DNA of 64,000 bases from Negativicutes bacterium (GCA_963665275.2 CAXXIN010000014.1:128001-192000), one strand, 5' to 3'; counted from the first letter of the stretch, positions 15,920-20,412 are shown. Numbers and translations are program-made. Notes: generated by a model not told the origin, from the sequence alone.

Positions 15920-16191
15920 GCGACGATATTATCATCTGCCGCTGCGAAGATATAAAACTGTCGGAAATCCGAGAGCGTATCGCACAGGGAGATCGCACGA
16001 CGGAAGAGATCAAGCGCGGCTGCCGCTGTGGCATGGGCCCGTGCCAGGGCAGAACATGTATGCCACTGGTGGCGCAGGAGCTGGCCAAAGCAACCGGGCA
16101 ACAAGTTGGCGACATCGAACTGCCGACGTTCCGTCAACCGGTGGCGGCGATCAAGATGGGTGCGTTGGCGGGAGGTGGCGATCATGAATAG
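15916..16191 (+). CDS. BFD-like [2Fe-2S] subunit
   Basis: IICRCED and GMGPCQGRTC motifs. Confidence 0.85.
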   Translation: MSDDIIICRCEDIKLSEIRERIAQGDRTTEEIKRGCRCGMGPCQGRTCMPLVAQELAKATGQQVGDIELPTFRQPVAAIKMGALAGGGDHE

Positions 16192-17332
16192 AACTGCCGA
16201 CGTAGTGGTAGTCGGCGGCGGGATCGTCGGCTGCTCCACTGCCTATAACCTGGCTCGCCTTGGGGCAGGGAAAGTAGTTTTGGTTGAGCGAGGTTATTTA
16301 GCCAGCGGCTCTACCGGTCGGTGCGGCGCTGGCATGCGAATGCAGTGGGGCACTGAAACCAATTGCCTGTTGTCGCGCGAAAGCACGAAATTGCTGGAAA
16401 ACTTGCCTGAAATTCTCGAAGTCGATACCGACATTGAACTGAAACAGGGCGGCTATCTGCTCTTGGCCTACACGGAGAAAATGGCGGCCCAGTTCAAAAA
16501 AAACCTGATCTTGCAAAACTCACTCGATATTCCTGCTCGCTGGGTGACTCCTGCGGAAGCGAAAGAGATTGTGCCGCATCTCAATACGAATGGCATGATC
16601 GGCGCGACTTTTTGTCCCAAGGACGGACACTGCAATCCGTTCAAGGCGACGGAAGCCTATGCTAAGGCCGCCCGCCGCCTGGGTGTGGAAATCCTGACCC
16701 ACACGGAAGTGACCGGTATCGAATCGGAATGTTGCCAGATACGCACGGTGAAGACAACGGCGGGTGATATTCACACGCCGCGGATGGTAGTCGCGGCCGG
16801 TGGATACACCAAAGGCCTTGGTCGAATGGTGGGCGCCGAGATTCCAATTTACCCGGAGCGGCATGAAATATTGGTGACAGAGCCAGTAGAACCAATGCAG
16901 GAATCGATGGTAATGAGTTTTCACCATAATCTTTATTGTCAGCAGAGTCCCCACGGCAGTTTCATCATGGGAATTGGTCATCCCGATCTGCCGGAGAGTT
17001 TTGACACCCGGTCGAGCTGGCAGTTTCTGCAGGAGATGGCGACACGCCTGATCACCATATTGCCGGCGCTGGCGGGCTTAAATGTCGTTCGGCAATGGGC
17101 GGGCCTTTATGATATGTCCCCTGACCGGCAGCCGATCCTCGGACCGGCCGGTGATGTGGAAGGTTTCCATGTGGCAGCAGGGTTCAGCGGCCACGGCTTC
17201 ATGATCTCGCCGATTACCGGCCAGATCGTGGCCGAGCAGCTGCTGGGGCTGCCGACCGCATTGCCGGTGGGAATGCTGGACGCCGGACGTTTTCAGCGCG
17301 GCGATTTGTTCATCGAACCCTCGGTTGTCTAA
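16184..17332 (+). CDS. DAO-family FAD oxidoreductase (proline dehydrogenase/sarcosine oxidase beta subunit)
   Basis: GGGIVG, GSTGRCGAG, QWAGLYDMSPD and GFSGHGFM motifs. Confidence 0.88.
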   Translation: MNRTADVVVVGGGIVGCSTAYNLARLGAGKVVLVERGYLASGSTGRCGAGMRMQWGTETNCLLSRESTKLLENLPEILEVDTDIELKQGGYLLLAYTEKMAAQFKKNLILQNSLDIPARWVTPAEAKEIVPHLNTNGMIGATFCPKDGHCNPFKATEAYAKAARRLGVEILTHTEVTGIESECCQIRTVKTTAGDIHTPRMVVAAGGYTKGLGRMVGAEIPIYPERHEILVTEPVEPMQESMVMSFHHNLYCQQSPHGSFIMGIGHPDLPESFDTRSSWQFLQEMATRLITILPALAGLNVVRQWAGLYDMSPDRQPILGPAGDVEGFHVAAGFSGHGFMISPITGQIVAEQLLGLPTALPVGMLDAGRFQRGDLFIEPSVV

Positions 17333-17400
17333 AGACACCGCCAAATATGCAAAAATAAAATTTGAGACCAGCTATGAAAAGTCAACAGGTGCGACTGAAT

Positions 17401-18582
17401 TTAGCGTGCCAACATCGGATCATAGGCTTGACCAGATTTGAGAAGAGCAAAAATGGTATAAAGCAACTTGCGAGAAACCGCGCCCAGAGCAACACGATGG
17501 GCTTTGCCCTCTTCGCGTTTCTTATGATAAAACGCAGCAAAGACCGGATTGAATTTAGAAGCGGGGAACGCTGCTAACCAAACGGCTCTGCGCAGATACG
17601 GCGAGCCCCGTTTGGACATATGGCTTTGGCTGCCGGTGAATTCGCCGGACTGCTTTATTGAAGGATCCATCCCAGCAAAGGCAACCAATTTCTCAGGAGC
17701 GGAAAAACGATGAACATCGCCAATCTCACTGAGGATGGCTGCTGCCAAGACTTTGCCGATACCGGGAACCGTATGCAACGTGCAAGAAAAGCGGTCATAG
17801 TAGGCACTGATTTGTTCGCCAAGCTCAGCCAATTGCTCTTCCAGAAACACAATCTGAGCCACCAGCTGGCGCAATTGAAAGGCCAGGGCGTCTATCCCCA
17901 ATTTGACTCCAAACGAATGCTTTGCGGCATTCTGAATCCGTTGAGCTTGATCTAGGCCGAAGCGGCCACGGCTGGTTCGTTCAAGCAAGCCAGCTAACTT
18001 CCCAGAATCCACCGCTAAAAACTCCTCCGGAGTGGAAAACTCCGCCAGCATCTGGCGGGAAGAGGCTCCGAACAGATCAGAAAATAGGGACTCATATTCC
18101 GGAAACACTTGATCCAAGAGGGCGATTACCTTGCGTTTGAGATCGGATATATTATCTACCAGTGAGAAACGATAGCGGCAAAGTTGACGCAACGCAATTA
18201 AATCGGGTTCGGCCAGGGTGGTTTGCGTAAACCGACCGAAGCGAATGACCTCAGCGATGAGAAAGGAATCGACTGCATCCGTTTTAGTCTGGCGAATGTA
18301 CAGATTGCGAAGGCTGTCGGACTGAATGGGATTGATCACATGGACGACATGGCCATCCTGTATCAGCCGGGAATAAAGGGGCAGCCAGTAATGACCGGTT
18401 GCTTCCATGCCGAACACAACAGGCAGCAAAGTGGGATTGAGTTTTTGAACCTGCTTGAACAAAAGCTCAACTCCGGCGAGAGAATTGGGGAACGAAAATG
18501 GTTTTCCCAGCAAACCGCCTGATTCATTCATCAGACAGGCCTCATGACTGCGCTTGGCGATGTCGATGCCGACGATGATCAT
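17401..18582 (-). CDS. IS110 recombinase/transposase, 393 aa
   Basis: DEDD RuvC motifs GIDIAK, MEATGHYW and KTDAVD; C-terminal KQSG and SKRGSPYLR; start after GGAGGT. Confidence 0.95.
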   Translation of the reverse strand: MIIVGIDIAKRSHEACLMNESGGLLGKPFSFPNSLAGVELLFKQVQKLNPTLLPVVFGMEATGHYWLPLYSRLIQDGHVVHVINPIQSDSLRNLYIRQTKTDAVDSFLIAEVIRFGRFTQTTLAEPDLIALRQLCRYRFSLVDNISDLKRKVIALLDQVFPEYESLFSDLFGASSRQMLAEFSTPEEFLAVDSGKLAGLLERTSRGRFGLDQAQRIQNAAKHSFGVKLGIDALAFQLRQLVAQIVFLEEQLAELGEQISAYYDRFSCTLHTVPGIGKVLAAAILSEIGDVHRFSAPEKLVAFAGMDPSIKQSGEFTGSQSHMSKRGSPYLRRAVWLAAFPASKFNPVFAAFYHKKREEGKAHRVALGAVSRKLLYTIFALLKSGQAYDPMLAR

Positions 18583-18619
18583 GTGCGCACCTCCCTTTGG
18601 GACAGATAACCTCCAGCAG

Positions 18620-18835
18620 CTGCGGCACACAACCTCGTGAGACATGCGAAGTACCAGTCGTACCGGCCAACATCCAGCTCATTCGTGATGGACCGCAGGG
18701 CCAGAGGGATCACTCTCAATTTCGAGGTTCAACCTCAAGGAGGAAGACGATCTCCTCTGTCCTCTGCTATTAGTATCTCCGATTGTTCCTCGGGAGACAA
18801 GCGGAGAGGTTCAACAGGTTTCCCTGTTTATCCCG
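18620..18835 (-). ncRNA. Putative IS110 bridge RNA (ends approximate)
   Basis: Non-coding end with 5' hairpins, a stem cagaggagatcgt/gtgatccctctg enclosing guides cttcctcct and aaattgag around the hairpin gaggttgaacctc, and a second loop with agctgg and acgag matching the donor junction. Confidence 0.75.
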
Positions 18836-18864
18836 AACATAATTATACGAGGAGGAAGCTCATC

Positions 18865-20412
18865 ATGTTAACAGAGTATCGCAACGAACCGTTTACGAAT
18901 TTCTCCATTCCCGAAAACAAGGCTGCCATGGAAGCGGCGCTGTCCTTGGTAGCGTCGCAGAAGGGCAGACATTATCCCCTGAAAATCGGTGGCGTTGCCA
19001 TCGATACGGAAGCGAAGATCACTTCGGTCAATCCCTCTTATATCGAGGAAGTGGTCGGCACCGTGGCCCGCGCCAACATTGAGTTGGCGGACAAAGCTGT
19101 AAAAGCGGCCGCCGACGCCTTTAAAACGTGGAAATTCATTGAGCCGGAAACCCGCGCTCGACTGATTTTCAAAGCGGCTGCCATTCTGCGCCGCCGCAAG
19201 TTCGAGTACTCCGCCTGGTTGGTGGAGGAAGCCGGCAAGAACTGGGCCGAAGCGGACGCCGATACGGCGGAAGCCATCGACTTCATGGAATATTATGGCC
19301 GCGAAATGCTGCGTTATGCCGCAGGGATGACTGTGACATCCTACCCCGGAGAGCAGAATGAATGCGTCTATATTCCGTTGGGCGTGGGCGTGGTCATTCC
19401 GCCCTGGAACTTCCCTCTGGCAATCCTGGCAGGGATGACCGCGGCGGCTGTGGTTGCAGGCAACACCGTCATCATGAAGCCGGCCAGCAGCACACCGGTT
19501 ATTGCGGCCAAACTGATGGAGCTGTTTGAAGAGGCCGGTGTTCCTGCCGGCGTTATCAACTATCTGCCTGGCAGTGGCGGCAGCATCGGCGACGCGCTGG
19601 TGTCCCATCCCCAGGTACGGTTTATCAACTTCACCGGTTCCAGGGATGTCGGCCTGCGGATCAATAAATTGGCTGCAGACGTAGTGCCGGGACAGATCTG
19701 GATCAAACGGGTGATCGCTGAAATGGGCGGCAAGGATGCGATCATCGTGGATGATGAGGCTGATCTCGAAGAAGCGGCGACCGGCATTGTAACGTCGGCC
19801 TTCGGTTTCCAGGGGCAGAAGTGCTCGGCCTGCTCGCGCGCGATTGTCGTAAAAAGCGTTTACGATGAACTGGTAGCGAAAGTTGTGGCCAAAACAAAAG
19901 CGCTGAAAGTCGGACCGGCAGCCGAATTTGGCGTAAACATGGGTCCGGTGGTGGATGAAAGCGCTTACAAGAAAGTGCTGGATTATATTGAAATCGGCAA
20001 AGGCGAAGCCCGTCTGGTCGCAGGCGGCAACAAAGCGGGCGACAAGGGCTGGTTCATCGAACCGACGGTATTCGCTGACGCGCCTGCCACTTCCCGCATC
20101 GCACAGGAAGAAATCTTCGGGCCGTTCGTAGCCATCATTCCGGCTGCTGATTTTTCCGAAGCTCTCGACATCGCCAATGGCACCGAATATGGTCTGACCG
20201 GCGCCGTATTTTCCAAGAACCGTGCCAAGTTGGAGCGGGCACGCCGCGAATTCCACGTCGGCAATCTTTATCTTAACCGCAAATGCACAGGGGCATTGGT
20301 CGGCGTGCAGCCCTTTGGCGGCTTCAACATGTCAGGCACCGACTCCAAAGCTGGTGGCGCCGACTATATGCTGCTTTTCATGCAGGCCAAATCGGTTGCG
20401 GAAAAACTCTAA
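18865..20412 (+). CDS. pruA: 1-pyrroline-5-carboxylate dehydrogenase (RocA/PruA)
   Basis: [28 protein letters not shown] and [21 protein letters not shown] motifs; the upstream ORF extension is IS DNA. Confidence 0.93.

Follow-up and report, generated by a model that had tools for sequence, protein, structure and literature searches.

Insertion at translation-initiation signals was reportedly described for the insertion sequences (IS) IS900 in Doran 1997 and IS901 in Inglis 2003. According to the relevant passages of Plague 2010, which cites both, these elements of Mycobacterium avium insert upstream of genes, between the Shine-Dalgarno (SD) sequence and the start codon. IS900 belongs to the IS110 family, and the insertion motif given for it in PMC8141618, which itself cites Doran et al., CATGNNNNNNTCTCCTT, is the complement of an SD, 6 nucleotides (nt) and ATG. 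The bridge-RNA layout set out in the corresponding sections of Durrant et al. 2024 (PMC11208160) is matched by the folded left end of an IS110-family element in the sequence analysed here, a stretch of 64,000 nt (hereafter, the window) from a Negativicutes bacterium (GCA_963665275.2, CAXXIN010000014.1:128001-192000). This element lies antisense before pruA, and it is interpreted as an IS110-subgroup insertion sequence that is active or was so until recently, working as an RNA-guided bridge-RNA recombinase system; judged from sequence, this interpretation is given a probability of roughly 0.87. Its anatomy, the empty sites of its insertions, and the matches of its guides to flanks and ends, with their covariation, are all read directly from the DNA.

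The element and its insertion sites

The genome assembly (3.97 Mb, 20 contigs, 50% G+C) contained three copies of the element with 100% pairwise identity. The sequence common to the copies lay between two CT dinucleotides, outside of which only target-like bases were shared. The same core dinucleotide occurred at both junctions of all three copies, a single AG was present at the matching place in the empty sites of relatives, and there was no longer target duplication. The earlier note on this DNA had recognised the element itself but placed its limits at 17364-18858; the CT cores give the limits shown in Table 1, and positions 18852-18858 are target DNA, i.e., the SD of pruA. On the minus strand, a non-coding left end of 267 nt (18849-18583) was followed by an open reading frame (ORF) of 393 amino acids (aa) and a right end of 34 nt (17367-17400). 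According to PMC11187229, the IS110 subgroup is characterised by a non-coding region that is long before the recombinase gene and short after it, and both features were found here.

The identity of the recombinase agreed with the assignment to IS110 made in the earlier note. Both Pfam domains of the family were detected (Table 1), i.e., the N-terminal DEDD RuvC-like domain PF01548 (DEDD_Tnp_IS110) at full length (1-155/155) and the C-terminal Tnp domain PF02371 (Transposase_20), and the protein matched the IS621 transposase (8wt6, 1.1e-24) and ISCro4 (5e-24) in PDB. The motifs GID, EATG, KTDxVD and SG aligned with IS621, corresponding to window residues D7, E60, D102, D105 and S312, the last lying within KQSGEF, which aligned with the SG of IS621. 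Going by the IS621 literature, D7, E60, D102 and D105 (GID/EATG/KTDxVD) and the serine S312 are the putative catalytic residues.

All three copies were inserted antisense at the 5' edge of an SD, each with the SD, 8 nt and ATG toward the gene. Read along the gene strand, the pruA copy was flanked by aaaatt-TG-AG...AG-GAGGAagctcatcATG; the flanks of the second copy, which adjoins a 28 aa Zn-ribbon ORF downstream of a patatin-like gene, read gaaaat-TG-AG...AG-GAGGGaacgtattATG; and those of the third, which adjoins nifI1 downstream of nifH, read gataag-TG-AG...AG-GAGGAtgaatagtATG. As AGGAGG was common to all copies, the copies alone could not assign it to the element or to the target, and therefore the empty sites were examined. 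In same-genus genomes without the element, the pruA site read AAAAATGAGGAGGATTTTTATCATG (G004) or ATATTGAGGAGG(G) (G003, G005 and G007), with a native SD of TGAGGAGGA or TGAGGAGG across these four genomes, located between the DAO-family gene and pruA; the empty site reconstructed in the earlier note was indeed the ribosome-binding site (RBS) of pruA. The nifH-nifI1 site in G004, G009 and G011 carried AGGAGGA 7-9 nt before ATG. For the remaining site, only diverged upstream regions were found in relatives, and these were likewise SD-like. Since the empty sites carry the SD, it is native target DNA that was cut at its 5' edge (TG-AG-GAGGA), leaving the gene with AGGAGGA and its spacer, such that AGGAGGA, 8 nt and ATG remain together.

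These empty sites already contradict the alternative that AGGAGG is a part of the element, acting as an outward-facing portable RBS, with insertion before start codons following some other rule. The occurrence of AGGAGG at all three right-hand junctions would agree with that explanation, but an SD precedes pruA and nifI1 in same-genus genomes that lack the element, the limits set by the CT cores give an exact consensus promoter on end joining, and the donor loop reads CT-CGT instead of the SD; its probability is regarded as close to nil.

The element was also observed away from this assembly. Contigs of another isolate (X3) had the same three sites, while two freshwater metagenome runs contained the element with other flanks; in one metagenome contig (X7), the left end abutted AGGAGG, CGTATCAAC (9 nt) and ATG at a different gene, again antisense. 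Antisense insertion just upstream of genes with the SD kept, as the earlier note had proposed, was found beside an SD and ATG in 3/3 copies and one metagenome flank. Three identical copies, together with further flanks in two metagenome runs, suggest recent movement.

Two of the insertions had further features of their own. The third copy (L003:1501-2994, contig C18 of G000) is situated in a nif operon, which comprises nifH and then two P-II genes, where it separates nifH from nifI1 and may be polar on the downstream nitrogenase genes. On the gene side of the second copy (L002, contig C7 of G000), the ORF of only 28 aa begins MFCNQCGQ... where relatives begin MFCSQCGQ..., and it may be truncated here. 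Among 13 genomes of the same taxonomic family, no other copy of the recombinase was found at E 1e-60, and close copies were accordingly drawn from reads and metagenomes. Another species of the genus, without the recombinase at that threshold, contained a 71 nt stretch (G003:C23:3554-3624) with 82% identity to the left end (window 18764-18835), which is interpreted as a remnant or a distant relative.

A predicted bridge RNA in the left end

The non-coding left end comprised, in order on the minus strand, CAGAGGAGATCGT (18759-18747), CTTCCTCCT (18746-18738), the hairpin TGAGGTTGAACCTCG (18737-18723), AAATTGAG (18722-18715) and GTGATCCCTCTG (18713-18702); every string that the earlier note had cited from this region was present where it had been placed. 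Folding of the whole end (268 nt) gave z = -3.15 relative to shuffles and included the target stem-loop in the minimum-energy structure. In this fold, a 5' region preceded two stem-loops, each opened by an internal loop. CT was present at both ends and the second loop matched the element's own ends; the arrangement fits the IS621-type layout with a CT core named in the earlier note. Four guide segments were located in the window, at 18738-18746, 18715-18722, 18674-18679 and 18634-18638. The agreement of the left arm with the left target was 9/9, as claimed; AGGAGGAAG occurred in exactly two places in the 64 kb window, 18738-18746 and 18850-18858, where shuffles had a mean of 0.41 matches and two or more in 7/100 cases.

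The two target guides together predict the site CTTCCTC-CT-CAATTT (15 nt), from which the occupied sites differ by one (pruA), two and three bases. There was no site with 0-1 mismatches in the rest of the 3.97 Mb assembly, where 16 sites had two mismatches and 95 had three; therefore, no other site in the genome matches as well as the one occupied in this window. Start codons of ORFs with 50 codons or more adjoined 11/16 of the free sites with two mismatches and 48/95 of those with three.

Joining the ends in silico produced a consensus promoter, TTGACT-17 nt-TATAAT, and the right end (TTGAC...TAGCYGGT-CT) was conserved in relatives. In the proposed mechanism, the ends would be joined as a circle or equivalent junction, bringing TTGACT of the right end before TATAAT of the left, and the resulting promoter would drive an RNA of about 220 nt together with the recombinase gene. 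One internal loop of this RNA would read the joined ends of the element itself and the other would read the target. Because the left guide is the 16S anti-SD sequence, the preferred target CTTCCTC-CT-CAATTT would be the complement of a strong SD together with a short piece of the sequence upstream of it. An element that inserted at the CT core would come to lie antisense, bordering the SD on its 5' side, with the core plus left target, AGGAGGAAG, staying joined to the start codon of the gene. Within this scheme, the transcript, the intermediate with joined ends, the activity in recombination and any consequence for the gene downstream are predictions.

At the pruA copy (window 18842-18871, minus strand), codons 1-3 of pruA provided TTAACA 18 nt before TATAAT, an 11/12 promoter match, while the -35 position at the other two copies matched at best 3/6. 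The integrated pruA copy might consequently express the RNA and recombinase without joined ends, from a hybrid host promoter. A promoter scan identified no outward promoter toward pruA.

Guide covariation among relatives

Relatives of the element were assembled in two sets. The genome set was limited to one genome per species and comprised 80 loci with recombinases 46-56% identical; the metagenome set comprised 80 further loci, four of them at 63-74% identity, and rows already seen were removed from it for the analysis of covariation. When the target stem-loop was aligned over 22 diverse members, compensatory changes were found in 12/15 predicted pairs. The covariance model derived for it (R1) located the loop approximately 115-195 nt upstream of the gene, with 79 matches among 83 sources in the genome set and 70 among 81 in the metagenome set; hence, the stem-loop named in the earlier note is a conserved target-binding loop. 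The ends of elements were set independently of the guides, the left as the core followed two bases on by a -10-like hexamer, and the right as TTGAC, 14 nt and the core.

Both arms of the target loop covaried with the flanks. In the genome set, the left guide agreed with the seven bases left of the core at 286/462 positions (permuted mean 198.9), and the right guide with the six bases right of the core at 191/306 (permuted mean 93.6); none of 20,000 permutations was as high in either case, and the result was unchanged with one row per distinct guide. The metagenome set gave 236/371 for the left guide (permuted mean 182.8) and 144/234 for the right (84.3), each with 0/20,000 permutations as high. 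The covariation of guide and target that the earlier note had named as a check is therefore present on both sides of the core and in two separate sets. Individual rows were consistent with this: the near-identical elements L094 and L098 have left guides ACGGCUCC and AAUACUCC and flanks ACGGCTC and GATACTC, respectively, and the guides of L065 and L066 matched at 8/9 positions for the left target and 8/8 for the right.

The donor loop covaried with the ends of the element in the same manner. Its variants AGCUGG, AGCCGG, AGUUGG and AGUUAG tracked the same variant in the right end, and ACGAG, ACAAG, AGUAG, AGCAG, AGGAG and ACCAG tracked bases 1-3 of the left end. The left-donor 6-mer was found in 42/48 distinct elements (permuted mean 16.5, maximum 27) and the right-donor guide in 38/48 (permuted mean 8.0, maximum 17).

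It could be supposed instead that the protein chooses the target, or that the copies are inert relics that were dispersed in some other way, and that the RNA-like match is a by-product of insertion next to similar sequence. In favour of that view, neither transposition nor the RNA was observed directly in this organism; against it stand the covariation of both guide arms with flanks in two sets and of the donor loop with the ends, an intact ORF with catalytic motifs aligned to IS621, and three identical copies with further flanks in two metagenome runs. It is judged to be improbable, and target choice by the RNA guides is preferred.

Unusual arrangements were observed at some of the loci. Two target-loop matches occurred 224 nt apart in L033 (1080-1377), where the left end of the second copy began within the 3' stem of the target loop belonging to the first (AACCTCTCTC-CT); the element had inserted into the guide gene of another copy, the stem of which resembles its target. 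The flanks of four copies in one genome (L044-L047) did not differ over more than 70 nt in either direction, showing that the element was carried inside a larger repeated unit. In L099-L104, the left junction was TT and the right junction CT, i.e., the two cores differed.

Shine-Dalgarno sequences as targets across the group

Left guides were defined as anti-SD-like, from the guide alone, when CTCC, CCTC or TTCC occurred in their last seven bases. Insertions were then scored for the combination of an SD motif with an ATG at a distance of 3-16 nt from the core and an antisense ORF of at least 60 codons (at least 30 if running off the flank), a strict ORF rule that was applied because the lenient version had a background of 19.6%. 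In the genome set, this combination was found at 19/28 unique insertions with anti-SD-like guides and 0/31 with other guides, compared with 183/14,100 random positions in the same flanks (1.3%); the definition of the class partly presupposes the SD motif but not the ATG or ORF, and ATG plus ORF alone occurred at 6.5% of random positions. The corresponding values in the metagenome set were 14/34 and 0/6, where several of the misses visibly had an SD and ATG but their flanks did not extend far enough to satisfy the ORF rule. Over both sets, 33/62 insertions with anti-SD-like guides abutted an SD, ATG and ORF.

In a phylogeny of 107 distinct recombinases estimated with FastTree, anti-SD-like guides belonged to 63/107 and were spread over the whole tree, with guide class changing at least 11-14 times. 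The window element belonged to a well-supported clade of four rows with L130-L132, all of which have CTCC-type guides. A small clade (L052, L056, L067 and L181) had the SD across the core and right target (cac-CT-ccttg), a second register, with a left end beginning CC; by reading rather than computation, the CC would restore GGAGG beside the gene.

Other groups of loci had different flanks. In L077, L104, L201, L073, L194, L065, L066 and others, the left flank consisted of a G+C-rich hairpin and CTTTATC-CT-GC or TTTTAAC-CT-GC, and these sister clades seem to be aimed at sequences resembling intrinsic terminators. A Bacillaceae group (L083, L084, L086 and L097) was situated at GCCCC-CT.

Guide-flank covariation, the position of 3/3 copies at an SD and ATG, and the native SD of the empty sites agreed with the homing to strong RBSs by an anti-SD guide that the earlier note had envisaged. 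Whether this reflects selection is a separate matter. In a large IS110 clade, extending through Firmicutes and other phyla, the mimicry of the anti-SD by the left guide may have been selected as a 'universal safe harbour' strategy that is possibly ancestral, with at least two registers and a cut that keeps the full SD; the odds of this are considered to be about even. Alternatively, the guide would simply specify one 15 nt sequence, its SD likeness being incidental and unselected, and adjacency to gene starts would follow from the CCTCCT-rich words found there in this phylum. The drift or switching of guides seen in the class changes on the tree is in keeping with incidental likeness, as are the terminator-like and other targets of sister clades, the nearest relatives (L130 and L131) without a neighbouring ATG, and the position at gene starts of only 11/16 free two-mismatch sites in this genome. 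That anti-SD-like guides are nevertheless the majority over the whole tree, that their insertions abut an SD, ATG and ORF far above the random frequency in both sets, that a separate group (L052, L056, L067 and L181) reaches the SD in another register, and that IS900 has the same kind of target in an unrelated phylum, all count against it. Incidental likeness is considered rather unlikely.

Several observations weigh against the interpretation of the element offered here. The relatives in both sets together, some 150, are not independent of each other, and the boundaries assigned to them by regular expression were wrong in a few rows (L091, L026, L090, L032 and L034), which were kept in the counts. 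The closest relatives, L130 and L131 (71-74% identity), have CTCC-type guides and no ATG within 16 nt of the core. An Rfam scan of 17300-18900 found no matching family, and hence no outside model, its two matches being at chance level (rpsL_pseudo, 14.5 bits; Vax2os1_2, 10.1 bits). Neither an RNA nor a circle junction or excised site was observed; no RNA run covered a useful share of this stretch, and the absence of joints in contigs X3, X6 and X7 speaks neither for nor against circles or excision. Finally, the element separates pruA, nifI1 and the genes that follow them from upstream transcription.

Features of the locus

The positions of all features within the window are collected in Table 1.

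Table 1. Coordinates of the IS110-family element, its predicted RNA and neighbouring genes, counted from the first base of the window.
Feature	Position	Strand	Evidence and remarks
Whole IS110-family element	17365..18851	-	Bounded by CT cores; 1.49 kb, of which 1483 nt interior (17367-18849); three identical copies
Core dinucleotide CT (AG on plus strand), left-end junction	18850..18851	-	CT at both ends in all three copies
Core dinucleotide CT, right-end junction	17365..17366	-	CT at both ends in all three copies
Recombinase gene, 393 aa	17401..18582	-	Preceded by GGGAGG at 18590-18595; PF01548 6.8e-45, PF02371 4e-27
Predicted bridge RNA, ends approximate	18615..18835	-	5' stem-loops, target-binding loop, donor-binding loop; from fold and layout in Durrant 2024
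Target-binding stem-loop	18693..18764	-	Covariance model R1, 67.4 bits, E 3.4e-15; compensatory changes in 12/15 pairs
Left target guide CUUCCUCCU	18738..18746	-	Identity to left flank plus core 9/9, 7/9, 8/9 in three copies
Right target guide AAAUUGAG	18715..18722	-	Complementary to core plus right flank 7/8, 8/8, 6/8 in three copies
Donor-binding stem-loop CTGCGG...CCGCAG	18620..18698	-	AGCUGG at 18674-18679, ACGAG at 18634-18638
Left donor TTTCATAGCTGGT, read by donor loop	17367..17379	-	6-mer AGCTGG repeated in donor loop
-10 box TATAAT, 2 nt inside left end	18842..18847	-	TTGACT-17 nt-TATAAT once joined to right end
-35 box TTGACT, right end, outward-facing	17380..17385	-	Promoter complete only when ends joined
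Left target GAGGAAG, with core the SD AGGAGGAAG of pruA	18852..18858	+	Native SD at same place in same-genus genomes
Right target AATTTG (plus strand)	17359..17364	+	Flank comparison of copies
pruA-like aldehyde dehydrogenase gene, SD is the insertion site	18865..20412	+	PF00171 5.6e-150
Upstream FAD-dependent oxidoreductase (DAO-family) gene	16028..17332	+	PF01266 4.7e-79; pruA directly next in relatives

Comparison with known systems

This locus provides a clean natural case of bridge-RNA programming: all four guide segments can be identified in the DNA, comparison with relatives confirmed the empty sites, and the occupied site is the best match in the genome. SD-directed and SD-sparing antisense insertion was common in a large group of these elements, and it explains their position before genes and inside operons, as with the copy between nifH and nifI1. 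An old observation on mycobacterial elements, IS900 and IS901, is linked in this way to an RNA-guided mechanism. Should the safe harbour strategy be correct, it would offer an RNA-level explanation for the target preference of IS900 and IS901, as well as natural, pre-tested guide designs for promoter-proximal insertion. With their differing guides, the element and its approximately 150 relatives are candidate programmable recombinases from Gram-positive hosts. The part most worth following is the occurrence of anti-SD-like guides across the clade, the sparing of the SD by antisense insertion and the link to IS900.

A literature search found no paper that links SD targeting to a bridge-RNA guide; supplementary tables of target motifs (Durrant 2024 Supplementary Data 2) lay outside its scope and may list SD-like motifs. 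In the text of Durrant 2024, 'RBS' occurred 0 times, and the seekRNA paper (PMC11187229) contained 'ribosome' once, concerning a cargo gene. CazIS110-1 from Caloranaerobacter azorensis (10.1101/2025.10.25.684509) is described as an IS110 element of a Firmicute that is active in vitro, is present several times in the genome and has a bridge RNA with two loops; the words RBS and Shine are absent from that text, and its natural target is not stated in the relevant passages.

IS1111-type seekRNA elements (ISEc11, ISKpn4 and ISPa11; relevant passages of PMC11187229) resemble the window element in having a DEDD recombinase and RNA-guided choice of a short target. Those passages place their guide region downstream of the gene and describe subterminal inverted repeats, whereas the guide region here is upstream, as in the IS110 type.

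IS621 from Escherichia coli and ISCro4/IS622 share the same two protein domains, and the window recombinase could be aligned to the solved chains of IS621 and ISCro4. Likeness to IS621 as presented in the relevant sections of PMC11208160 extended to a non-coding RNA region upstream of the gene, a left guide with the sequence of the left target, a right guide complementary to the core plus right target, a CT core, and a promoter rebuilt across the joined ends. The relationship is nonetheless distant, with an E value of 1e-24, two local stretches aligned and a length of 393 aa here, where the IS621 chain of known structure has 328. The natural target also differs, being an SD here and, in those sections, a repetitive extragenic palindromic (REP) element for IS621, and the right guide matched up to 8 nt here, compared with the four-base right guide used for IS621 in the analysis they report.

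IS900 and IS901 are members of the same family with orientation-specific insertion at translation-initiation signals, and the targets here, CAT-N8-TCCTC-CT, have the same form. Targets of the IS900 type, i.e., the complement of an SD and start codon in one orientation, were found for 3/3 copies and one metagenome flank, with 8-9 nt between SD and ATG. The host here is a nif-bearing, Firmicute-type anaerobe, rather than the actinobacterium of IS900 and IS901. Those elements are reported to carry an antisense ORF that spans the element and depends on host signals (hed), whereas none is present on the plus strand here; a hed-like ORF was rejected, as plus-strand ORFs inside the element had only 71, 81, 72 and 99 aa and the ATG at 17374 was not conserved in relatives. 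A 68-codon ORF does begin there on the plus strand (17374-17577), reading in from the right end antisense to the recombinase gene, with an ATG that is the complement of CAT in TTGACTTTTCATAGC; since many relatives have T in place of a base of this CAT, it is probably a chance ORF.

The earlier note had supposed this targeting strategy to be undescribed, which does not hold: IS900 and IS901 have been reported at translation-initiation signals since 1997, and the target class is not new for the IS110 family. In those reports, insertion occurred between the SD and start codon, whereas the cut here was at the 5' edge of the SD, which stays with the ATG. Every sequence-level feature of membership that was tested was found, and the predicted mechanism is that of the IS621-type bridge recombinases, applied to the kind of target known from IS900 and IS901.

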